Shown piece by piece: positions 2,459-63,645 of a stretch of DNA of 64,000 bases. The notes beneath the pieces are model-generated. The model did no database searches and was not told the origin of the DNA. It was given only the letters and a program-made list of their open reading frames with translations. Source of the DNA: a phage. The stretch lies in sequence record PQ826431.1; one strand, given 5' to 3'. The position numbers and the translations under genes were made by a program. The number at the start of each line of letters is the position of its first letter. The stretch's first letter is position 1.

Positions 2459-2629
2459 ATGATCCCGACTATGTTTTATGTATCGCGCAAAGGTCACAAT
2501 ATTTTTTGGTCTGAAGATTTAAATGAAGCTATGACGTTTGCCCGTGATCGTGTTGCTATCGGTGGCGTTAATATCACCGTGACCGATGAAAACGGCATTG
2601 AATACTATAACGGCGATGATGAAGAGTAA
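2459..2629 (+). CDS. hypothetical protein (56 aa)
   Basis: track ORF trimmed to ATG after RBS AGAAGAGAAAC. Confidence 0.5.
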   Translation: MIPTMFYVSRKGHNIFWSEDLNEAMTFARDRVAIGGVNITVTDENGIEYYNGDDEE

Positions 2630-2673
2630 TCAACAAGGCGGGATTAATCCCGCCTATATTAAAGGGCAATATA

Positions 2674-2811
2674 ATGAAAACTTTCAACGCAACAGCCTCG
2701 ACAATTGGTTATATTATTACAGTACAAGCCGTTGACCTGGTAGCGGCAGCAAACAAGATTAAAAAAATGATCCCAACAGGCAGCGAATTTTCCGTTTGGG
2801 AAGTAAAATAA
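2674..2811 (+). CDS. hypothetical protein (45 aa)
   Basis: ATG downstream of hairpin GGCGGGA-TTA-TCCCGCC; not in track. Confidence 0.35.
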   Translation: MKTFNATASTIGYIITVQAVDLVAAANKIKKMIPTGSEFSVWEVK

Positions 2812-2814
2812 AGC

Positions 2815-2876
2815 TTGACAATAATTTGTTATCTAGTAAAGTGTATTACGTAGGGCGGGGCAATGGTGCAACGCCC
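2815..2876 (+). promoter_or_regulatory. promoter (-35 TTGACA, TGTATTAC box) plus 5' stem-loop with ATGG loop
   Basis: sequence motifs. Confidence 0.45.
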
Positions 2877-2894
2877 ATTAATGAGGGTAGAATC

Positions 2895-2999
2895 ATGTTA
2901 GAGAAAATTTTCACGGTTGCAGTGGTTGGCCTGGCGTTATCGGTTGGAGTAGTTGCAACTATGGCTAATATGATCCTATCTTCCCACGGTATCGGTTAA
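2895..2999 (+). CDS. small membrane peptide (34 aa)
   Basis: track ORF trimmed to ATG after RBS GAGGGTAGAATC; hydrophobic. Confidence 0.35.
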   Translation: MLEKIFTVAVVGLALSVGVVATMANMILSSHGIG

Positions 3000-3009
3000 G
3001 GTGAAACAA

Positions 3010-3225
3010 ATGATCACGAACAAAACAGGCAAAACGGAATTTTTACGCGGCTTACAAGTTGGTAAGCCTGAGATCTGGCATTGCACGAAGTCCGCGCATA
3101 ATGAAATGAAAGATTTTACCGCTACTTTACAACGTGTTAAAATATCTATCACACAGAAAAAAGCCTTGTTAGTAGTAGAAAACGAGATCCCGCAAACTAT
3201 TATTATTGTCGAGCGTACAGCATGA
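3010..3225 (+). CDS. hypothetical protein (71 aa)
   Basis: ORF track; ATG after RBS AAGGTGA. Confidence 0.5.
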   Translation: MITNKTGKTEFLRGLQVGKPEIWHCTKSAHNEMKDFTATLQRVKISITQKKALLVVENEIPQTIIIVERTA

Positions 3226-3608
3226 AAACAGAAATCATTATTGAAATCATCAACGGCTATAAAGAAGCCTTTATTTTTGCTGAATCAGCAAGGGATCATG
3301 AAGGTAATTTTATTGAATACTTAGACTATTATGATTTTTCTCCTGGTGCGGATGAACGGATCGCCCAGGATGTAACAGCCTTTATTAATGCTAATCTTGC
3401 CGCTATCTCTGAGGCAATGAGCGACGGCGCAACAGCCATCCAGATCGGGAGTGATTTACATTTTACCCGTAACGGTCACGGCATAGGCTTTTGGAATCGC
3501 CCTGAAATATACACCACTAACACGGCAAACCGCTTAACCAGTGCCGCCGAGGTCATGCCGGACGTGTCGGCTTACATTGGGGAAGATAATTTGATTTATA
3601 TAGAATAA
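3222..3608 (+). CDS. hypothetical protein (128 aa)
   Basis: ORF track; start overlaps upstream stop (coupling). Confidence 0.55.
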   Translation: MKTEIIIEIINGYKEAFIFAESARDHEGNFIEYLDYYDFSPGADERIAQDVTAFINANLAAISEAMSDGATAIQIGSDLHFTRNGHGIGFWNRPEIYTTNTANRLTSAAEVMPDVSAYIGEDNLIYIE

Positions 3609-3614
3609 AAAGTA

Positions 3615-3673
3615 TTGACACCGATCCCCAATATGTTACTATTTACCACGTGGGCGGGAAATGGTTTCCCGCC
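3615..3673 (+). promoter_or_regulatory. promoter (-35 TTGACA) plus 5' stem-loop GGCGGGAAA-TGG-TTTCCCGCC
   Basis: sequence motifs. Confidence 0.45.
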
Positions 3674-3696
3674 AGGTAATCAAAAAGGTAAATACT

Positions 3697-4086
3697 ATGC
3701 GCAACCTGGTTTCTGTTTCTAACGTTGAAAAATTCCAATCTTTACAGGGTATCATTAACAACGTAGCGCCTTTTTTAGTCAATGGCTTGATTGCAAAGAT
3801 GAAGAATAAGCATCATGCGGCATGGTCTGCTTACTGCTTTGATAATGATGAAAAAGCGGCTGAAATGATGTTAAATATGCTGTTAGACAGTGTAGAATCA
3901 TCTTTACCGGAAAACATCGCAGAAGAGATCACCTATCGTTATAATATGGCGATCACTTACCAGGAAGTGGCACAGTTCAACATGATGGATGATGACGAAC
4001 AACAGGATCAAGAAATGTTTTGGGAGTATGCAGATCGTCAATCGGCTTTTGATGAAAAGTTAGCGATGTATTATAACGAATATTAA
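3697..4086 (+). CDS. hypothetical protein (129 aa), acidic C-terminus
   Basis: track ORF trimmed to ATG after RBS AAAAAGGTAAATACT. Confidence 0.6.
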   Translation: MRNLVSVSNVEKFQSLQGIINNVAPFLVNGLIAKMKNKHHAAWSAYCFDNDEKAAEMMLNMLLDSVESSLPENIAEEITYRYNMAITYQEVAQFNMMDDDEQQDQEMFWEYADRQSAFDEKLAMYYNEY

Positions 4087-4473: not shown

Positions 4474-4502
4474 TGACCGATAAATCACAACAGTTTAATA
4501 TT
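4474..4502 (+). promoter_or_regulatory. promoter (TTGACC-17-TAATAT)
   Basis: consensus-like -35/-10 upstream of 4550 ORF. Confidence 0.45.
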
Positions 4503-4549
4503 GTTTTTAGAGGTTAGAATATTCCCCAAACGAAAACAGGAAAAAGAAA

Positions 4550-4786
4550 ATGAAAGAAGTCATGATCCTCAAAAAATCACCTATTTTACGTGGTGGCTTT
4601 ATCGCTTACTCTGATGATCTGTTAATTGCAACAGTTGCAAAAATACTAAAATCAGAAGATGACAGTAAAAACGGCGTTTATCGTATCTGTTTCACCCGTG
4701 GAAAATTACAAGGTAAGATCGCTTATGCTTTTGATTTACAAGATGTAAACGATAAAATATGCGCTGTTATTGATTATGCAAAATAG
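4550..4786 (+). CDS. hypothetical protein (78 aa)
   Basis: ORF track; RBS AACAGGAAAAAG. Confidence 0.55.
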   Translation: MKEVMILKKSPILRGGFIAYSDDLLIATVAKILKSEDDSKNGVYRICFTRGKLQGKIAYAFDLQDVNDKICAVIDYAK

Positions 4787-4798
4787 TTAATTTTCTTA

Positions 4799-4827
4799 TT
4801 GACACCGGATCACGCTTGCATTATTAT
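4799..4827 (+). promoter_or_regulatory. promoter (TTGACA-17-TATTAT)
   Basis: good consensus; followed by degenerate TAGGGC box. Confidence 0.5.
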
Positions 4828-4873
4828 TTATCACGTAGGGCAAATCATTTTAAACGGTAAACGAGGAATCACC

Positions 4874-5257
4874 ATGAGCAATATCATCAACCTGGCAGCG
4901 ACTGTAAACGGTAAAGACTTTAACGGCGCTGTAGACCGTGATCCTATGTGGTGCTTATCAGTGTTTAAAGGCGACCTGGTTGAAGTTAGAACAACCGAAG
5001 GATATAGCGATGATTATAAATGTGAGGTCCATTTGCATAACTGGTACACGGGTAAAACTTATGCGCTGAATCACGCGTTTATCGGAAAAATCGAATATCG
5101 TGAGATGATCGACGAAGAAACGGGGCAAGATTTTAGCGAAAACGTTTATATCCGTTCAGAAACATTGGCCGAACGTTTGATCGAGAAAATGAAAGCAAAA
5201 AATAAAATTAACTTATCTCATTGGATTGATATAACAAACGATCCAGCTTATCAATAA
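4874..5257 (+). CDS. hypothetical protein (127 aa)
   Basis: track ORF trimmed to ATG after RBS AAACGAGGAATCACC. Confidence 0.6.
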   Translation: MSNIINLAATVNGKDFNGAVDRDPMWCLSVFKGDLVEVRTTEGYSDDYKCEVHLHNWYTGKTYALNHAFIGKIEYREMIDEETGQDFSENVYIRSETLAERLIEKMKAKNKINLSHWIDITNDPAYQ

Positions 5258-5273
5258 ATAACATTTCATACCA

Positions 5274-5299
5274 GGGCGCACCAAGCGCCCTTTCTTTTT
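5274..5299 (+). terminator. intrinsic terminator GGGCGCA-ccaa-GCGCCC + T-run (copy 3 of 3)
   Basis: hairpin plus TTTCTTTTT. Confidence 0.75.
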
Positions 5300-6780
5300 G
5301 CCCGAACAATGTTGATAGCTTCCGCCTATGAAAAACCGACACAGAACAAAACTGAATAAATCACGGTATCGAGCTAATCAACCAGCAAACGAATAACCAT
5401 ACACCCCAGGGCAACAGGCTGTTAGAGAGCTATTTAGAGCGGTTAAAATCGATCAACAACCAACAACAAACCATCAAAAACACGCTTTTCTTTCCTTTCC
5501 AGTGCAATGATAACCATTATCATCTACCCATGATTATCTATGCAATATAAGCGCATAACTATAATGTTGATAATAGTTCGCAACAACTAACCAACCAACA
5601 ACCTAAAACAATAAGCAAACTAATCATAATCAAAGGAATAATAGAAAGATGATTGATAACGACAAACAATCAAACCATGATGAATACTAAGCAAGATAAC
5701 GATAACACGACAAAACAACCAACTAACGAACAATAACAAACGAAACCATTAAAATAATAACTATTGCCATAATAGTGACTGAATGAAATCATTCCCAGGA
5801 TCATCATTAGCACGCTATGCCGGACACATAGCGAGCTAATAATAAGCCAACTACACCCCAACAATCATAACCATCGGTGATGGTTATTTCTTGTTACTGC
5901 GTAGCTTGCAATAATTGCAAGCGTAATGACGCTTACACTTATTGCGCTGGCTTATTATTAGCATTATATGTAATTACCAAGATCATAACATTAGCGCAAT
6001 AACAATAATCATTGTAATAATTACAGTATGAGATCATTAGCATGGCAATAATTATTGGGGGCAATGGGAGGATGATTATCATCATTCCGATACATTGCAC
6101 ACTATGCACATAATAGAATAAAAGTCAATACTTTTGGGGGCGAAATGTTACCGCCACAGGCGGGAATGTTGAGCATCTTCTCTTAAACGTAAATAAAATC
6201 AGAAAATTCTTGATTTATTCTGGTTTTTATGTTAATAAACGTTTAAATAATAATCATTCTCATATAAATAATAGTCTGCTTGTCATGAGCGGGATTAGTT
6301 GACATTGTTCCGTCATATGATGAAGTTGCCAAACCATTGATAAATAAGTGTTTGTGTGATTTATAATCAAGTGGCCCACCTTGTCGCTACGTTGGCATAA
6401 GCCTTGCATAAGTCATTGAATACGAATGATAATTATTCTCATTCGCATGATATTTGGGAATTGTCGCTGCGTGGACCTGACGGCCCGAAAATTCGCGTTA
6501 AGCACTTCTTACGTATGCGCCATGATTTTTGCCATATCCTATTGATTCTATTAGATATTCTTGCCATGATTGCCATGAAACAGGGTGTCCCGAAATAATC
6601 TCTCCCCGTAGATATTTTGGGTTACTTTTTATACAAGAGTGGGGTGTCAAAAATAATCGGTATATATGGGATAATTGATAGGAATCCCCTATGATAATTC
6701 GATTGTAATTCCCTAAGATTGATCGTATGATGTTGGTGATTGATGATTGCCATGAAAGATGGCTAACGATGAGAGGAGAT
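5300..6780. other. long non-coding region: G-poor A/C-rich tract with CAA/AAC repeats (5300-5880) then AT-rich palindromes (5880-6400)
   Basis: no RBS-supported ORF; strong strand compositional skew; palindrome GCTTGCAATAATTGCAAGC near 5903. Confidence 0.6.
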
Positions 6781-6784
6781 TATC

Positions 6785-7129
6785 ATGCAAGAGAGTAAAA
6801 ATGTTCCGTTGAGTAGCTTACGTCTAATGAAGTTTTACAAAGCTTGGCTTGCTGGTGAGGTAGAAGGTCACACAACGAGTGGTTTGTGCATATGTTTGAT
6901 TAAGTATGTAGAGGGAACATACCCTGATGAACTGTTACCTCGTCTACAACAGGAGATGAAATCACAGTTTATTAGTGCAGGATTGGATTACAATTTCCCG
7001 TTTAATGAAGGTGGTTATGAGGAATACACCTTCGAACATAAAAAACATATTTGCCATAAAAACAAACATCGTATACAATGGGTGCTAGATAGAATTCAGG
7101 ATTACGAAGGAGAGAAAAATGACAAATAA
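6785..7129 (+). CDS. paralog family member 1 (GLCxCL / WVKDR motifs), 114 aa
   Basis: ORF track; RBS GAGAGGAGATTATC; shares FYKAW, TSGLC, GLDYNFPFN, QWV-DRI motifs with six other ORFs. Confidence 0.65.
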   Translation: MQESKNVPLSSLRLMKFYKAWLAGEVEGHTTSGLCICLIKYVEGTYPDELLPRLQQEMKSQFISAGLDYNFPFNEGGYEEYTFEHKKHICHKNKHRIQWVLDRIQDYEGEKNDK

Positions 7130-7487
7130 TATTCCGTTGAGTAGTGCAGCATTGCTTCGCTTCTATAAAGCATGGATTGCCAACTATCCTGCAATGAATC
7201 GCACAACGAGTGGCTTATGTGGTTGTCTGGTAGATTATGTAGATGATTTTGTTGGTGAGACAACTAGAGAAGAAGATAGAAGATGGCGGGATAGTTTGTT
7301 AGACCGTTTGAAATATGAAATGAGGAAACAATTTACATGTGCAGGGTTGGACTACAATCTTCCGTTCAATGCAGATTGCATGGATTACCTTTCAGAGTGT
7401 ATAAACTTGGCGTGTCATACCAACACGTTACGTCTTCAATGGGTGAAAGATCGCATTGAAGATGCAAATAATGCTTGCATTGAATAA
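7119..7487 (+). CDS. paralog family member 2, 122 aa
   Basis: ORF track; motifs FYKAW, TSGLCGCL, GLDYNLPFN, LQWVKDRI. Confidence 0.65.
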   Translation: MTNNIPLSSAALLRFYKAWIANYPAMNRTTSGLCGCLVDYVDDFVGETTREEDRRWRDSLLDRLKYEMRKQFTCAGLDYNLPFNADCMDYLSECINLACHTNTLRLQWVKDRIEDANNACIE

Positions 7488-7546
7488 AAATGTCTGTATG
7501 ATAGTTTGCATACCGCGCATAACAGATAGCCAATGAGGAGATTGAA

Positions 7547-12324: not shown

Positions 12325-12513
12325 ATGGTAATTGAGATTAAACTTGAATATGCTGGGGCTGTTGCTCTGATCGCACAAATGCTTGGAGCAAAGATTGAAG
12401 AAGTGTATATCAATGCCTGGAGCGTAGAGATTGATGTTCCTATGGACAACATTGCTAATCGCTTGCTGGTGGCAGAGTGTGAACGCACCAACATAATCTA
12501 CAAAGGAGCATAA
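12325..12513 (+). CDS. hypothetical protein (62 aa)
   Basis: ATG after RBS GAGGTG. Confidence 0.5.
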   Translation: MVIEIKLEYAGAVALIAQMLGAKIEEVYINAWSVEIDVPMDNIANRLLVAECERTNIIYKGA

Positions 12514-41433: not shown

Positions 41434-42087
41434 TTAGCCTCGAAATACTGTTTTTGTTTCCGCCAGGTGCCAATAGAAATCCGCCTTGTTTACAAGAGTG
41501 TTGTACACCTCTGGATAAAAATGTTCTTCCTCTTTGTAACGATCCGCTGTTTCCCTGATTGACTTAGCTTTATCTTTTAGCCAAGCGAAGTGTGCCTCTT
41601 CCTCTGTAGCGAAGTAACCTAAATGCTTTCCTTTGTGTCCAGATGATTTAGAAGAAATCTTACCATCGGATTTTCTTACAGTTACCCCTAAAAGGGATTT
41701 TCTTTCCGTCCTTTTTGAGTAACTTAACAGAGTATTCACATATGCTGGAACAAACCTACAATACGCTGGACAATAGACCGTATTACCTTCAAGTACAAGG
41801 TCTTTGTCCAGAACAAAGTTTGCTACAAAGTTTTCTTGATACCACATGTCGAAGTTTGAAAACATAAACCACTCGTCACAAACCGTCACACCTGTATACC
41901 CAGGTCTTGCTTGTTCCATTTTATAGGCTCTTTCGAACATGTTTTTCCAAGCTTTGTAAGACGGGTCTGGCTTCCCGTCTACAAATAATCGTCTTTCTAC
42001 ATCAACTACTAAGGGGATTTCTCCCCTTTCGGTAGTAACGGTCACTGCACGTTTACCTTTGAGCATTTGACCTCCTACATGCTGCAA
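41434..42087 (-). CDS. homing endonuclease-like protein (degenerate HNH-type N-domain + AP2-like DNA-binding domain) between nrdA and nrdB
   Basis: YKAW..M..RAY...GVTVCDEW..F.NFDMW pattern shared with 52446 ORF; C-terminal GYFATEEEAHFAW AP2-like motif. Confidence 0.5.
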   Translation of the reverse strand: MQHVGGQMLKGKRAVTVTTERGEIPLVVDVERRLFVDGKPDPSYKAWKNMFERAYKMEQARPGYTGVTVCDEWFMFSNFDMWYQENFVANFVLDKDLVLEGNTVYCPAYCRFVPAYVNTLLSYSKRTERKSLLGVTVRKSDGKISSKSSGHKGKHLGYFATEEEAHFAWLKDKAKSIRETADRYKEEEHFYPEVYNTLVNKADFYWHLAETKTVFRG

Positions 42088-44321
42088 CCCTCACATCCAG
42101 ACTCTTTCAGGTTATCTTCTTGTGCTAAAGAATCTGCTGATTTTGTTCTACTATTAAGGTAATACAATGACTTACCACCCAGTCTAGCAAAGTTCAAAAT
42201 AAATTTCATCTCTTCTTTAACTGATAAACGTCCCCCTACCAATTTAGAATAATCTAACCAAGAATCACAAGAAATTCCTTGGTCCGTAAACTTGGTAAAG
42301 ATACCATACATTTCTGCAAGATCTTTAGCCGGAGTATCCCAGGCAGATTGGTAGAACATTTTCAGTTTTTCATAGTCTGGAACAATAAATAATACACTGC
42401 CTTTCTGACTTTGTTTATACATAATGGTATCACGAACAGGATACAGAGAGTTAGTAGTATTGCTTACCAAACTGCTGGACTCATTAGGTGCAATAGCAGC
42501 CAAGACACTGTTACGGATACCACCTTGTTCAATGATTTCAGCACGTAAGCCTTCCCAGTCCATTTTAAGATCAAAATTACCGATACTATCTACTGTTTTA
42601 GCATAAGTGTCAATTGGTAGCCAACCTTGAGGCCATTTGGTCTTATCGATCCACTCCGCATTACCTTTTTCCTTAGCCAGACGCAGAGAGGCTTTTGCCA
42701 ACCAAAAGTAATGACGTTCTGCAAGTTCATGCATTAATTTTTTAGCATAAGCATCTGAATAATTTACAAAATTACTTGCCAAGTAATGCGCTAAGTTTGT
42801 AATGCCTACACCAATAGATCTACGTGCTTTAGCAGTTATTTCGTTATGTTTAAATGGATAATCCATTGTTTCAATAACGTTGTCAATTGTCAATACAGTG
42901 TAGTATGCAACATCTTCATATTCTTCAGGTAATACACGACCAGCAACAATAGAAGATAAGAAACATAAAGCCAATTCTTGATCTTCTGTATTCTCACCAG
43001 TAAAGAGATCCGGCATACTGTGGAAAGCTTTAGTTGGTAAGAAGATCTCTTGACACAGGTTTGATTGATACACCGTATCCAGGAAAGGTGTATGGTTGTT
43101 AACGTTGTCAGCAAAGAACATGTAAATACGTCCTGTTTCTGCACGTTGAACAATAATCTCTGTCAGAAGATCACGAGCCTTAACAAATTTTTTCTTAATG
43201 CGACGACGGCTTACTTTGTCATAAACTGCATCAAACTCTTCTTCACTTTTATACAAAGCTTCATAAAGTTCAGGAGCATCATCACAACTAACTAACATCC
43301 AATCTTCGTTTTTTGCTGCTCGACGCAAGAACGAACGGTTAACAACAATAGAATAATCCAGTTTGTCTACTCGTTTATCTATAGGTGTTGTTGGATTCTT
43401 CAGTCGAATCAGATCGTCGAAGTCTGGTTCAAGTATGGTAAAGGTAACTGTAGCACTACCTCCACGGCTTGCTTGCTTCGAAGCTCCAACACTATCTTCC
43501 ATCCATTTCAGATACGGAAGAAGACCACCATGAATAATACGATTATTCTTAACACCTTGACCTGTGGCACGAGTTTGAAGATTAACACCAATACCTGCGT
43601 TATTCAACGTATACTCATGAGCTAAGTAATTAGCAATGGCTAAAGATTCTGCCGTATCGTCTGCACGGAATAAACAACAAGACGCACTTCCTTTGATTGG
43701 AGTTCGTAGAGTTGTCAGATACGGCGATGGCAGATTAATCTTAAGATCGCTAACATAAGTATAAAGTTTTTTAATATCTTCTATACGGCGTTCTTTTGGT
43801 TGGATCTCCATAACCTTCATTGCGATACCAATGAAAAGAAACTGTGGAGACTCATGCACCACATCGTTTACTGCATCTCGAATAAGATATTTATCTACCA
43901 TCTGACGTAAAACAGAATAACCATAAGTTAGATTTTTATTATGCTTTACAATCTTACCGATTTCTTTGATCTCTTCATCAGTATAATCCATTTTAGCCCA
44001 ATGTCCACGTTCTACCATATCATGATAAAAGGTATTCAGTGAAGGGATACTGTGGTATCCCCCATGAGCCTGTTTGTAAATCATACCCAGAAGAAGTCTT
44101 CCTGCCATATCACTGTAAGCTTGTGTTTTCTTGTCAATACACGCTGCAATCATTGCTTTATGCAGATCACGTGTAGACACACCGTCATAACACCGCTTCA
44201 CAGCTTCTAATTCAATTTCAGACCAGTTTAGTTTACCTGCTGCAAATTCAGACCACTTGCGAAGTTTTTCTGGATTAAACTCCTCTGTCTTACCGTTAGA
44301 TTTAGTTACAAAACGAATCAA
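42075..44321 (-). CDS. nrdA: ribonucleotide reductase class Ia alpha subunit
   Basis: 748 aa; ATP-cone N-terminus, catalytic-core motifs (NLCQEI, PNESSS), C-terminal CEGCSM tail analogous to T4/E. coli NrdA. Confidence 0.9.
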   Translation of the reverse strand: MIRFVTKSNGKTEEFNPEKLRKWSEFAAGKLNWSEIELEAVKRCYDGVSTRDLHKAMIAACIDKKTQAYSDMAGRLLLGMIYKQAHGGYHSIPSLNTFYHDMVERGHWAKMDYTDEEIKEIGKIVKHNKNLTYGYSVLRQMVDKYLIRDAVNDVVHESPQFLFIGIAMKVMEIQPKERRIEDIKKLYTYVSDLKINLPSPYLTTLRTPIKGSASCCLFRADDTAESLAIANYLAHEYTLNNAGIGVNLQTRATGQGVKNNRIIHGGLLPYLKWMEDSVGASKQASRGGSATVTFTILEPDFDDLIRLKNPTTPIDKRVDKLDYSIVVNRSFLRRAAKNEDWMLVSCDDAPELYEALYKSEEEFDAVYDKVSRRRIKKKFVKARDLLTEIIVQRAETGRIYMFFADNVNNHTPFLDTVYQSNLCQEIFLPTKAFHSMPDLFTGENTEDQELALCFLSSIVAGRVLPEEYEDVAYYTVLTIDNVIETMDYPFKHNEITAKARRSIGVGITNLAHYLASNFVNYSDAYAKKLMHELAERHYFWLAKASLRLAKEKGNAEWIDKTKWPQGWLPIDTYAKTVDSIGNFDLKMDWEGLRAEIIEQGGIRNSVLAAIAPNESSSLVSNTTNSLYPVRDTIMYKQSQKGSVLFIVPDYEKLKMFYQSAWDTPAKDLAEMYGIFTKFTDQGISCDSWLDYSKLVGGRLSVKEEMKFILNFARLGGKSLYYLNSRTKSADSLAQEDNLKESGCEGCSM

Positions 44322-61602: not shown

Positions 61603-61677
61603 GGCCCTGTAGCTCAATGGGAGAGCTGTCGGCTCATAACCGATAGGTAGCTGGATCGAAACCAGCCAGGGCCACCA
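61603..61677 (+). tRNA. tRNA-Met (anticodon CAT; initiator/elongator/Ile2 not resolved), incl. CCA
   Basis: manual cloverleaf: acceptor GGCCCTG/CAGGGCC, D GCTC/GAGC, anticodon loop CTCATAA, T-arm GCTGG-ATCGAAA-CCAGC. Confidence 0.8.
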
Positions 61678-61679
61678 AC

Positions 61680-61754
61680 GTCTTTATGGTGTAATGGATA
61701 GCACAGGAGTCTTCTAAACTCTTAGTCAAGGTTCGATTCCTTGTAAAGACACCA
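61680..61754 (+). tRNA. tRNA-Arg (anticodon TCT), incl. CCA
   Basis: manual cloverleaf: acceptor GTCTTTA/TAAAGAC, anticodon loop CTTCTAA, T-arm CAAGG-TTCGATT-CCTTG. Confidence 0.8.
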
Positions 61755-61950
61755 GAACATTTTAACATGAATTAGCTCAAGTGATTTGAACCCACTACTG
61801 ATCATGGTGGCAGAGAATGAGGCAAGTATGTCAGACATTATAAACAAAGGCCACGGTTATATTAGAAGACATAAATGCTCGAAGAGCACCGTTCGTTGAG
61901 AACGGGGGTTGGTGGAGTCACCATTCATGGTAAAATGTTTTAAAAAACTA

Positions 61951-61979
61951 TTGACAACTAACATTATTTTATGTTAGAT
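61951..61979 (+). promoter_or_regulatory. promoter (TTGACA-17-TTAGAT)
   Basis: consensus -35; upstream of tRNA-Ser. Confidence 0.5.
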
Positions 61980-61988
61980 TATAAGTAT

Positions 61989-62079
61989 GGAAGGGCAAAT
62001 CGACGTGGCGACGAAAACGGTCTTGAAAACCGCCGAGCTTGAAAGAGCCTTGGGAGTTCGACTCTCCCTCCTTCCGCCA
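61989..62079 (+). tRNA. tRNA-Ser (anticodon TGA), type II long variable arm, incl. CCA
   Basis: acceptor GGAAGGG/TCCTTCC, anticodon loop CTTGAAA, variable-arm hairpin GCTT-GAAA-GAGC, T-arm GGGAG-TTCGACT-CTCCC. Confidence 0.7.
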
Positions 62080-62084
62080 GATTA

Positions 62085-62170
62085 GGTAGATTGGTGAAAT
62101 GGTAGCCACAACAGTTTGCTAAACTGTAGTCGGAAACGGCGTGTAGGTTCGAGTCCTACATCTACCGCCA
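62085..62170 (+). tRNA. tRNA-Ser (anticodon GCT), type II, incl. CCA
   Basis: acceptor GGTAGAT/ATCTACC, anticodon stem ACAGT/ACTGT loop TTGCTAA, T-arm GTAGG-TTCGAGT-CCTAC. Confidence 0.75.
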
Positions 62171-62303
62171 AGTTCTTTTTAATATAGCTTACTTTAATAG
62201 AGTAAACTTTCAGCAGATGGCCCCCCCACCATCTTACTGATAACTCATAGTTAGTGGTGTGAACACTGGCTATTTTAAAAAGAATTTTAAATATTAGTAT
62301 TTA

Positions 62304-62391
62304 GGTGAGTTAATTCCGTAGGGGTAGCGGGGCAGACTGTAAATCTGTTATCATTGCGATTCGGGTGGTTCGACTCCATCACTCACCACCA
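62304..62391 (+). tRNA. tRNA-Tyr (anticodon GTA), type II, incl. CCA
   Basis: acceptor GGTGAGT/ACTCACC, anticodon loop CTGTAAA, long variable arm. Confidence 0.7.
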
Positions 62392-62397
62392 AATTAA

Positions 62398-62483
62398 GAT
62401 GAGTTGGCTGAATGGTTTAAGCGGCGGACTGTTAATCCGTGTTCGAAAGAACGATATAGGTTCAAATCCTATACTCATCGCCA
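62398..62483 (+). tRNA. type II (long variable arm) tRNA; manual fold gives anticodon GTT (Asn), identity uncertain
   Basis: acceptor GATGAGT/ACTCATC, 3-bp D stem, anticodon stem GCGGA/TCCGT loop CTGTTAA, variable hairpin GTTC-GAAA-GAAC, T-arm ATAGG-TTCAAAT-CCTAT. Confidence 0.5.
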
Positions 62484-62490
62484 GAATTAT

Positions 62491-62567
62491 GGACTTGTAG
62501 AGTTAAGGTAAACCCCCAGTCGCCAAGAGGCTTCTGGAATTGCAGGTATCGAATCCTGCCGAGTCCC
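62491..62567 (+). tRNA. tRNA-like element with non-canonical anticodon domain (possible pseudo-tRNA)
   Basis: acceptor GGACTTG/CGAGTCC and T-arm-like GCAGG-TATCGAAT-CCTGC present, but no 5-bp/7-nt anticodon arm. Confidence 0.3.
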
Positions 62568-62686
62568 AGAAAAGAAACAGGGTCGCTCCCTGTAAGTCGT
62601 CCAACTGAAGCCCACTGCGGTGTTCCTCCTCCCACAGTTTAACTGTGTTCTGGTCAACATCAAGCATGGTTGAAGGGGCGCAATAT

Positions 62687-62762
62687 GCTTCAATAGCTCA
62701 GTTGGTAGAGCACTTGCCTTGTAAGCATGAGGTCGTAGGTTCGAGTCCTACTTGGAGCACCA
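62687..62762 (+). tRNA. tRNA-Thr (anticodon TGT), incl. CCA
   Basis: D-arm TAGCTCAGTTGGTAGAGCA, anticodon loop CTTGTAA, T-arm GTAGG-TTCGAGT-CCTAC; one T-T mismatch in anticodon stem. Confidence 0.75.
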
Positions 62763-63037
62763 ACACAACATTAAGAGCACTGTGATTGATCGTCGTATCC
62801 TGTGCACAAGGTCTGTTCGAAAGACAGTGTTCTTAGTATTGTGTTGATCACACAAAAAGAGTCACCTGAAACTTGACCGGAGTAGGGTTGGATGGGGTAA
62901 AAGAAGAAGCGGCTCTCCCATCGACAGCAACGAAGAATAATATTTGACTTTGGTTTTGTATTATTTTAAGTTAGCTTACCGAACGTAGGGCTAGTCACCC
63001 AATGGGATACTCGTCACTGTCCCACTCAATAAAACTA

Positions 63038-63068
63038 TTGACAACCAATAGTAAAATGTAGTATAGTA
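63038..63068 (+). promoter_or_regulatory. promoter (TTGACA-17/18-TATAGT)
   Basis: consensus -35; upstream of tRNA-Gly. Confidence 0.5.
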
Positions 63069-63078
63069 AAGAGGTAGG

Positions 63079-63152
63079 GCGTTCTTGGTGTAGCGGTAGC
63101 ATTCCGTCCTTCCAAGTCGGCGGCACGAGTTCGATCCTCGTAGAACGCTCCA
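63079..63152 (+). tRNA. tRNA-Gly (anticodon TCC), incl. CCA
   Basis: acceptor GCGTTCT/AGAACGC, anticodon loop CTTCCAA, T-arm ACGAG-TTCGATC-CTCGT. Confidence 0.75.
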
Positions 63153-63250
63153 AATTATTTAATAAAGGGTTGCCAGAAAACTTTCTCTTTTACTCATGGT
63201 TTTCTCCTTCTCTCACACCTCTTCTGGTTGCCCTTCATTAAATGATTTAT

Positions 63251-63326
63251 TGGTTTGTAGTGTAGTCAGGTAGCACACGACACTTTGACTGTCGTAGGTT
63301 TGGTTCAAATCCAGACAGACCAGCCA
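63251..63326 (+). tRNA. tRNA-Gln (anticodon TTG), incl. CCA
   Basis: acceptor TGGTTTG/CAGACCA, anticodon stem CGACA/TGTCG loop CTTTGAC, T-arm TTTGG-TTCAAAT-CCAGA. Confidence 0.7.
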
Positions 63327-63331
63327 TATAA

Positions 63332-63408
63332 CGGAATTTAGCTCAGTTTGGTAGAGCATACGCTTTGGGAGCGTAGGGTCGCAGGTTCGAATCCTGCAAT
63401 TCCGACCA
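63332..63408 (+). tRNA. tRNA-Pro (anticodon TGG), incl. CCA
   Basis: acceptor CGGAATT/AATTCCG, anticodon stem TACGC/GCGTA loop TTTGGGA, T-arm GCAGG-TTCGAAT-CCTGC. Confidence 0.8.
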
Positions 63409-63414
63409 ATTTAA

Positions 63415-63488
63415 TGTTTCGTAGTTCAATGGTAGAACCCACGACTGATAATCGTGAGACACAAGTTCGATTCTTGTCGAAACAACCA
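63415..63488 (+). tRNA. tRNA-Ile (anticodon GAT), incl. CCA
   Basis: acceptor TGTTTCG/CGAAACA, anticodon stem CACGA/TCGTG loop CTGATAA, T-arm ACAAG-TTCGATT-CTTGT. Confidence 0.75.
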
Positions 63489-63490
63489 AT

Positions 63491-63560
63491 TTCCCGTTAG
63501 ACTTACAGGATAAGAGTTCCACAACTTATTGTGATGCTGGTTCGAATCCAGCACGGGATA
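63491..63560 (+). tRNA. tRNA-like element with degenerate anticodon arm (possible pseudo-tRNA); no encoded CCA
   Basis: canonical T-arm GCTGG-TTCGAAT-CCAGC and acceptor TTCCCGT/ACGGGAT but anticodon region forms CACAA-CTTA-TTGTG hairpin (4-nt loop). Confidence 0.3.
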
Positions 63561-63566
63561 CCTAAT

Positions 63567-63645
63567 AGCGGGATAGAGGAGTCTGGTCGTCCTCGCCAGT
63601 TTCATATGCTGGAGATCATTGGTTCAAATCCAATTCCCGCCTCCA
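63567..63645 (+). tRNA. tRNA-Met (anticodon CAT), second copy, incl. CCA; A1-C72 unpaired
   Basis: acceptor AGCGGGA/TCCCGCC, anticodon stem CCAGT/GCTGG loop TTCATAT, T-arm ATTGG-TTCAAAT-CCAAT. Confidence 0.65.

Follow-up and report, generated by a model that had tools for sequence, protein, structure and literature searches.

What accounts for a tract of about 1.5 kb without genes, positions 5,300 to 6,780, in a 64,000-nucleotide stretch of phage DNA (record PQ826431.1; hereafter the window, to which all coordinates refer unless another record is named)? A reading made from the letters of the window alone, which we call the sequence-only reading, had proposed a long non-coding or sponge RNA, a replication origin, a DNA-entry pause site or a boundary between differently regulated genome regions. 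Our comparison with related phages indicates that the tract is quite probably the concatemer-junction and genome-terminus control region of a phage with linear virion DNA, containing a direct terminal repeat (DTR) of 328 bp at 6172-6499/6500.

Genome ends within a conserved gene-free gap

The window belongs to a Phapecoctavirus (phAPEC8-like) genome and is collinear with phAPEC8 from about its first base; the genus comprises phAPEC8-like myoviruses of ~150 kb within the subfamily Stephanstirmvirinae. A gap of 1527 bp (5258-6784) separates the end of the phAPEC8_0017 homologue, at 5257, from the ATG of the phAPEC8_0018 homologue, at 6785, and the same gap lies between phAPEC8_0017 and phAPEC8_0018 in the phAPEC8 record, where a terminator is its sole annotation. 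Open reading frames (ORFs) of 41-64 aa occur in the gap on both strands, and each of them is interrupted in close relatives by stops or frameshifting indels. The gap is therefore non-coding, which agrees with the earlier description of a tract lacking any ORF supported by a ribosome-binding site (RBS). Spurious small minus-strand 'hypothetical proteins' have been annotated over the tract in ETEC-TG (eight, at 2484-3999 of that record) and in WPEC6 (six, at 6021-7146), and these are not kept as ORFs in relatives.

Despite the lack of coding capacity, the tract is strongly conserved. Used as a query, it matched 76 phage records, 57 of them with at least 80% coverage and 90-96% identity, and nearly all belonging to Phapecoctavirus. 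A closer comparison with related phages, as the sequence-only reading had proposed, found it kept in all ten relatives compared at 90-97% identity—with the exception of 6000-6170, where identity drops to 75-82%—and a block at ~5305-5400 is conserved even across genera. The small genes on either side were found in only 1-7 of the same ten relatives, with unrelated small genes replacing them elsewhere. A conserved tract between exchangeable neighbours is the pattern expected when accessory genes surround an essential cis-acting element.

The nature of this element is indicated by where the records of relatives end: a sensitive search showed that several linear records have their start or end inside the tract. 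Three independent linear GenBank records (Schickermooser, Mt1B1_P17 and WPEC6) carry exact repeats at their two ends, each of which can be aligned with 6172-6500 base for base. The Schickermooser record starts at the homologue of 6172 and ends at that of 6500, with 329 bp present at both ends, while Mt1B1_P17 (deposited reversed) and WPEC6 have exact end repeats of 328 bp with the same boundaries; the left terminus coincides exactly with the point where the Schickermooser and WPEC6 records start and the Mt1B1_P17 record ends. Korf et al. (2019) reported a 328-bp terminal repeat in Schickermooser, with ends at the positions where most reads stop abruptly (PMC6563267). For BME3, a phage of the sister genus, a repeat of 342 bp was determined by PhageTerm (PMC12210895), and the ends of its record fall on homologous positions, 4129 and 4470, in the Justusliebigvirus muut.

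Both boundaries carry a recognizable sequence (a caret marks the cut). Across 15 loci—drawn from Phapecoctavirus, the phiWec179 group, Justusliebigvirus, Klebsiella phages and metagenomes—the left boundary reads (A/T)TGTTG^AGC, and the right boundary, GAAAAT(T)CGCGTTA^AGCAC, is invariant in 20 distinct sequences, so that the two have GTTR^AGC(A/C) in common. The repeat lengths implied by these motifs are 329-332 bp in Phapecoctavirus and 343-344 bp in the Justusliebigvirus and Klebsiella lineages. The end positions are thus fixed, sequence-specific and conserved in all lineages examined: relatives' records end at 6172 and 6499/6500, GTTR^AGC stands at both boundaries, and the 1.5-kb core around them is conserved.

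The BME3 record (PP239276) has a 415-nt piece appended at one end, and its annotated 'DTR-L' feature is shifted by 73 nt from the cut motifs. We rejected the placement of the repeat 73 nt further right that this feature implies, as the real ends lie on the homologous cut motifs; the published length of 342 bp is within 1 bp of the 343-bp spacing of those motifs. The features of the gap are collected in the table.

Table. Features of the gene-free gap and its borders (dots in the strand column: no strand assigned; caret: cut; Fur scores are matches out of 19).
Feature	Position	Strand	Remarks
Intrinsic terminator	5273-5300	+	AGGGCGC-ACCAA-GCGCCCT plus T-run; from the terminator scan
A/C-rich, G- and T-poor tract	5292-5870	+	Right-end side of the terminal repeat
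AACAACCAAC-type short repeats, three clusters	5447-5469, 5583-5606, 5707-5738	+	Spacing ~124-142 bp
Fur-box-like site F1, TGCAATGATAACCATTATC	5503-5527	.	15/19 and an overlapping 14/19
Degenerate Fur-box-like site F2	5563-5581	.	12/19 (hand count); 16/19 in muut, 15/19 in phi1_175008
Compound palindrome	5807-5962	.	Between the A/C-rich tract and the DTR
Hairpin H1	5813-5819 / 5827-5833		Part of the compound palindrome
Stem A, 15 bp, long-range	5835-5849 / 5948-5962		Part of the compound palindrome
Hairpin H2	5867-5875 / 5879-5887		Part of the compound palindrome
Perfect palindrome H3, GCTTGCAATAATTGCAAGC	5904-5911 / 5915-5922		Exact at 5904-5922
Fur-box-like sites	5998-6016, 6068-6086	.	14/19 and 15/19; in the least conserved segment of the gap, 6000-6170
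GC-rich hairpin CCGCC-ACA-GGCGG	6151-6163	.	8 nt before the left terminus
Left terminus motif GTTG^AGCATCTTCT	6168-6181	+	Cut between 6171 and 6172
Direct terminal repeat, 328/329 bp	6172-6499/6500	.	From the ends of relatives' linear records
Predicted sigma-70-like promoter TTGATT-17 nt-TAATAA	6210-6238	+	Inside the DTR, reads into the genome
Fur-box-like site F6	6243-6261	.	14/19; inside the DTR, just downstream of the promoter -10
Fur-box-like site F7	6422-6446	.	Overlapping 14/19 and 15/19, near the right end of the DTR
Right terminus motif GTTA^AGCACTTCT	6497-6510	+	Cut after 6499 or 6500; from record ends
Leader of the first left-end gene, 284 bp	6501-6784	+	Repeat families, promoter-like site and RBS
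TTGCCATGA repeats	6561-6578, 6746-6754		Leader
GGGTGTC-N-AAATAAT, two copies	~6583-6607, ~6642-6664		Leader
24-nt tandem repeat	6670-6719		Leader
Promoter-like TTGTAA-17-TATGAT	6703-6731		Leader
RBS GAGAGGAGA	Upstream of the ATG at 6785		Leader

The right-end side: spacer, palindrome and hairpin

On the right-end side of the repeat, the tract that first drew attention to this locus is A/C-rich, with a composition of A 42.8%, C 23.3%, G 12.8% and T 21.1% over 579 nt (window-wide G, 18.7%). Its A+C content of 66% is the maximum of all 579-nt stretches in the 64 kb (mean 50.5%, standard deviation 3.3%; ~4.7 standard deviations above the mean), and CAA and AAC occur at 2.4 and 3.3 times their density in the window. 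The strand asymmetry and the wealth of CAA and AAC triplets described earlier are therefore real, but 'almost devoid of G' was an overstatement: with 74 G in 579 nt, the tract stands at the 2nd percentile of the window and not at its minimum, and the GC-skew excursion is local and compositional, without a genome-wide switch. GC content across the tract, 30-42% against 39% for the genome, is not markedly lower either.

The G-poverty is held or even stronger in other genera (G 3-7% in muut and 5-7% in the Klebsiella phage phi1_175008), though the core, 5580-5800, shows no sequence conservation between genera, with indels of up to ~150 nt. Folded as RNA, the tract is unstructured (z = -1.0). Its short repeats differ by lineage as well. 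In the window, AACCAAC occurs four times against 0.05 expected, and the same place in muut holds three copies of ATCTAACCTTTA at 99-104 bp spacing together with a 16-nt tandem array. The only Chi site in the window lies far off, at 12465.

A 2.6-kb 'non-coding' box described in rV5 (PMC3606486) was considered as a possible counterpart and rejected as the same element, having no similarity, one Fur-like match and no cut motif. This box (NC_011041, 104014-106617) contains a short G-poor, C-rich stretch, with G 6-9% and C 29-37%, and no Fur-like cluster.

Between the A/C-rich tract and the DTR lies a compound palindrome, in which the long-range stem A is combined with the more local structures H1 to H3. 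The perfect palindrome pointed out by the sequence-only reading is H3; it is exact, and many further inverted and direct repeats follow downstream of it. The compound palindrome is found in Phapecoctavirus, Justusliebigvirus, Klebsiella-phage and metagenomic lineages. The set available for covariation analysis is small, the scans of IMG/VR and of metagenomes having yielded four and six loci, respectively. On 14 diverse sequences, RNAalifold predicted 38 pairs, 12 of them with compensatory double changes; 98.5% of the alignment cells are paired, compared with 23-48% when the partners are slid by one to three columns, and the covariation score is 0.231 versus at most 0.054 for slid partners. None of 500 shuffles reached the observed values on four of five measures, and the fifth, further pair types, was reached by 114. 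A possible fifth helix (137-142 / 174-179 of alignment A2) received only partial support because of shifts in the alignment.

Among the 532 palindrome cells there is a single G.U pair, and the few mismatches are split between A.C and G.T. As single-stranded DNA, the palindrome is strongly structured on both strands (z = -7.7 for the plus and -10.3 for the minus strand). With covariation almost purely of the Watson-Crick type and mixed mismatches, the pattern fits a pairing needed on both DNA strands, as in single-stranded DNA hairpins or cruciforms, better than it fits an RNA.

Closer to the left terminus, the GC-rich hairpin is conserved in position with a sequence that changes from lineage to lineage: other lineages have TATCGC-GTA-GCGATA, ACCCT-GTTA-AGGGT or AGCGC-GATC-AGCGCT at this place. 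Justusliebigvirus lacks the hairpin and carries the direct repeat CTATTTGTTG in its stead.

Predicted promoters and Fur-box-like sites around the repeat

A predicted sigma-70-like promoter lies inside the repeat itself. It was spotted by eye and has no entry in the scan table, and its arrangement—TTGATT at +38 to +40 from the left end, a 17-nt spacer and a T-A-rich hexamer—recurs in eight of eight lineages examined. Past the right cut, the leader of the first left-end gene contributes further repeats and a second promoter-like site. This part of the gap has a distinct history, it seems: 6609-6816 is 92% identical to 4588-4796 of muut, compared with ~71-81% for the rest of the gap, which suggests that the leader and the start of the first gene were recently exchanged between genera just inside the left end. 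The first two genes past the tract (6785-7129 and 7119-7487) are tandem paralogues, both beginning M..N(V/I)PLSS..L..FYKAW(L/I)A and having CxC and AGLDYN(F/L)PFN motifs in common; relatives have one copy, two copies or a different gene at this locus.

At the opposite border, the intrinsic terminator is also annotated in phAPEC8 and Schickermooser, and its stem and T-run are kept in five of five lineages aligned. It is the predicted end of the rightward transcription unit formed by the small genes of the right arm. In phAPEC8, 'PHIRE promoters' have been annotated at 62-81, 443-462, 1293-1312 and 2708-2727. They have in common the GC-rich, hairpin-forming GTAGGGCGGCAATGGTGCCG, which in at least one case directly follows a host-type promoter, TTGACA...TAATAT, and which resembles a conserved 5'-leader element more than it does a promoter; a regular-expression search found no occurrence of this motif in the window, and it is unrelated to the motifs of the gap. 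No tRNA genes lie near the tract. A cluster of ten tRNA genes (Met, Arg, Ser, Asn, Thr, Gly, Gln, Pro, Ile and Met) occupies 61603-63645 on the plus strand, and the single ORF of at least 420 aa in the 64 kb is found at 42075-44321 on the minus strand, this half of the genome consisting almost entirely of small genes.

Among the repeats of the gap, a mechanical search returned a family, AATRATAAYYATTNTCAT, that matches the E. coli Fur consensus. Scored as matches out of 19 to GATAATGATAATCATTATC, with 14/19 as the threshold, eight positions within 5503-6446 reach 14-15/19, against six in the other 63 kb of the window. Dinucleotide shuffles of the region give 0.17 sites on average and never eight in 2000 attempts, and only 0.07% of palindromes built from a permuted half-site do as well as the Fur consensus. 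Copies at corresponding places in relatives score higher still (17/19 in phiWec179 and muut, 16/19 in muut and phi1_175008), and the E. coli K-12 operators of fepA-fes, fepD-entS and fepB-entC score 13-16/19 on the same scale.

The sites also keep their places. F1 stands at a constant offset, ~244 nt from the start of the gap, in phiWec179, muut and phi1_175008; F7, at 15-17/19, stops 54-56 nt short of the right cut in each lineage. F6 lies at +72 to +74 in E. coli-phage lineages and reaches 17/19 (GCAAATGATAATCATTATC) in muut and L020, at the expected start of transcription from the predicted DTR promoter. The cluster is a well-supported sequence observation with a putative function.

A probable terminus control region, its rivals and its known counterparts

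How might these parts work together? By analogy with T7-type short-repeat phages, we infer that this tract is a concatemer junction, at which neighbouring genomes of the replicating concatemer are separated by a single copy of the repeat. A packaging nuclease would cut at both GTTR^AGC sites, and the repeat would be duplicated by repair or strand-displacement synthesis. The right-end module—the A/C-rich short-repeat spacer, the compound palindrome and the GC-rich hairpin—would be the cis-acting part recognized by the packaging or processing machinery, with the palindromes acting when the DNA is single-stranded or extruded. The left end, with its predicted promoters pointing into the genome, would be the first to be injected, and the repeat promoter at +39 together with the leader promoters in 6501-6784 would then start early transcription into the genome. 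The Fur-box-like sites would overlie this architecture and probably recruit host Fur.

Several observations weigh against this account. The window contains the repeat once, and the read-end evidence (pile-ups and PhageTerm) comes from relatives only; a single copy is what a record opened elsewhere should show, and a concatemer or a collapsed assembly would look alike. The cut motifs stand in direct and not inverted orientation, an arrangement that does not by itself explain staggered nicking. Allowing two mismatches, the 14-nt terminus motif is not rarer in the window than expected by chance, so that its significance derives from position and from conservation across lineages. The two ends of the phiWec179 record (LC739533) share exactly 148 bp, at a locus that has no relation to the conserved termini, and the paper on this phage states that the genomes 'terminate with direct terminal repeats'; we consider this stretch probably an assembly overlap that was taken for a DTR. 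In T7, the A/C-rich array sits on the left-end side of the repeat, whereas here it is on the right-end side. Finally, it is from their position and conservation that we infer a packaging role for the A/C-rich spacer and the palindromes.

Three other readings of the tract each have a little circumstantial support, with specific evidence against each. A replication origin is unlikely. In such an origin the short repeats would act as iterons and the palindromes and AT-rich DNA would serve unwinding or priming, perhaps primed by transcription as at phiOR/phiOL of T7. The lineage-specific repeats at ~100-140 bp spacing, the covarying structured single-stranded-DNA element and the status of the tract as a core non-coding element are all compatible with this, and the T7 record has promoters annotated next to its terminal repeats, which serve as secondary origins. 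However, DnaA-like boxes with at most one mismatch are not enriched (four against ~2.4 expected), no initiator gene is adjacent to the tract, whose neighbouring genes are exchangeable, and neither the local skew nor the unremarkable GC content speaks for an origin; the earlier proposal thus finds no positive support in the sequence. The proposed long non-coding or Hfq-sponge RNA fares worse and is very unlikely. An A/C-rich transcript could run from the perfect -10 hexamer TATAAT at 5560-5565 to the hairpin at 5867-5887 with its T-run, which the terminator scan rated terminator-like; it would be unstructured up to a 3' domain of covarying helices and could bind Hfq or another chaperone. Yet the A-R-N-like pattern on which the idea was based is not enriched, with two in-phase (ARN)n runs of at least four triplets against 1.2 in composition-matched shuffles, 34% of which reach two, and a search of both strands of 4500-7500 against the covariance models of Rfam 15 gave no match at E ≤ 1. 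The TATAAT and the T-run after H2 are not conserved in other genera, where the A/C-rich sequence itself diverges, a strong conserved terminator stands directly upstream, and the covariation is nearly devoid of the G.U intermediates an RNA would leave, its few mismatches being mixed between strands. A Rho-dependent insulator seems just as improbable. Its unstructured plus-strand RNA, with more C than G, would load Rho and stop read-through from the right arm before the early region, consistent with the G-poverty of this strand across genera and with the position of the tract directly behind an intrinsic terminator; against it, the C/G ratio per 80 nt is mostly 1-2.6, with one window at 4.8, YC dinucleotides are few in 5540-5740, and the tract is A-rich rather than C-rich.

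A role for Fur is of a different kind, in that it is compatible with a terminus function and may coexist with it. We regard it as a tentative possibility, with the odds somewhat against it, that the region is a Fur-responsive or Fur-titrating element bound by host Fur-Fe2+. The density of sites against the rest of the window, the shuffle and half-site controls, the scores on textbook operators, the conserved offsets of sites in relatives (some of them inside the terminal repeat) and the location of F6 directly past the -10 of a conserved predicted promoter all argue for it. On the other side, the sites are known from the sequence, a phage protein of similar specificity may be involved instead, and F6 has been lost from the Klebsiella-type lineages. 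The match at 5950-5968 is simply an arm of the compound palindrome, and the overlap of sites with promoters is partly built in, because Fur boxes resemble AT-rich -10 elements. Our literature search found no mention of Fur boxes in such phages. It is conceivable, if rather doubtful, that the subfamily has wired its chromosome ends to the iron sensor of the host, with Fur boxes at fixed distances from both cuts. If so, Fur-Fe2+ would gate the first promoter by iron status, repressing the terminal promoters when iron is plentiful; or it would act as an architectural factor that builds an end-recognition complex, in the manner of IHF at lambda cos; or it would be titrated, the multiplying genomes sequestering Fur and derepressing host iron uptake to the benefit of the phage.

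As a probable concatemer-junction and terminus region, the tract belongs to a known type, and with the repeat of a close relative already in print the core finding is ordinary. Published accounts of the repeats of these phages give their length, and we found in them no description of the cut motif, the hairpin that keeps its position, the compound palindrome with its covariation, the A/C-rich spacer or the Fur-like array, which is apparently undescribed. In GenBank, most records of this widely used group of therapeutic-candidate coliphages begin at an arbitrary point. The ends at 6172 and 6499/6500, together with the GTTR^AGC signature, allow these genomes to be oriented and false genes to be removed, and they define a cis region to preserve when such phages are engineered or rebooted. 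The palindrome offers a handle on how a large myovirus with a short terminal repeat recognizes and duplicates its ends. The Fur-like sites offer one on how host iron status might feed into the first minutes of infection, and the array would be of real interest if Fur binds.

Among well-known systems, T5 has an injection stop signal, apparently what the sequence-only reading had in mind: a non-coding region, rich in repeats and palindromes, that is set within a terminal repeat of ~10 kb carrying the pre-early genes. The present tract resembles it in tying such a region to a terminal repeat. It differs in that the repeat is 328 bp long and gene-free, and nothing suggests a two-step transfer; with a repeat of this length, it is not a pause site of the T5 kind. 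Of the earlier suggestion of a regulatory boundary or DNA-entry site, what stands is that the physical ends and the first predicted rightward promoters lie here. The cos region of lambda (cosN and cosB with an IHF site) is a packaging-recognition region with nuclease cuts, repeated protein-binding sites and a site for a host protein, and the present combination of cut sites, repeated sites and candidate sites for a host DNA-binding protein recalls it. Lambda, in contrast, has 12-nt cohesive ends and not a duplicated repeat of 328 bp, and its host factor is IHF, for which our tract has a single core match without enrichment. With E. coli Fur operators, the putative sites have in common the 19-bp consensus (14-17/19 here, including relatives, against 13-16/19), the overlapping hexamer arrays and an overlap with predicted promoter elements, but the phage is a virulent one, the sites lie in non-coding DNA at its genome ends, and no gene related to iron follows them downstream.

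The closest likeness outside the subfamily is to T7, which combines a short direct terminal repeat with a G-poor, A/C-rich short-repeat array directly beside it and inward host-type promoters that lie no more than a few hundred bp from the left end. The T7 repeat is 160 bp long, the adjacent 161-400 has A 37%, C 28%, G 11% and T 24% with ~9 CCTAAAG-type repeats, and beyond this array the host promoters A1-A3 point inward. There is no sequence homology, the repeat is twice as long here as in T7, and the virus is of a very different type, a 150-kb myovirus for which a phage RNA polymerase is not known; no Fur-like cluster was noticed at the T7 ends, where no systematic scan was made. In T7, concatemer processing reportedly passes through an intermediate with a hairpin, formed at an inverted repeat to the left of the junction (Chung, Nardone and Hinkle, 1990), a point on which our literature search returned nothing usable. 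Within Phapecoctavirus and the Stephanstirmvirinae, the terminal repeats of Schickermooser (328 bp) and BME3 (342 bp) are of homologous sequence to the one described here, and the boundary motifs are common across genera.

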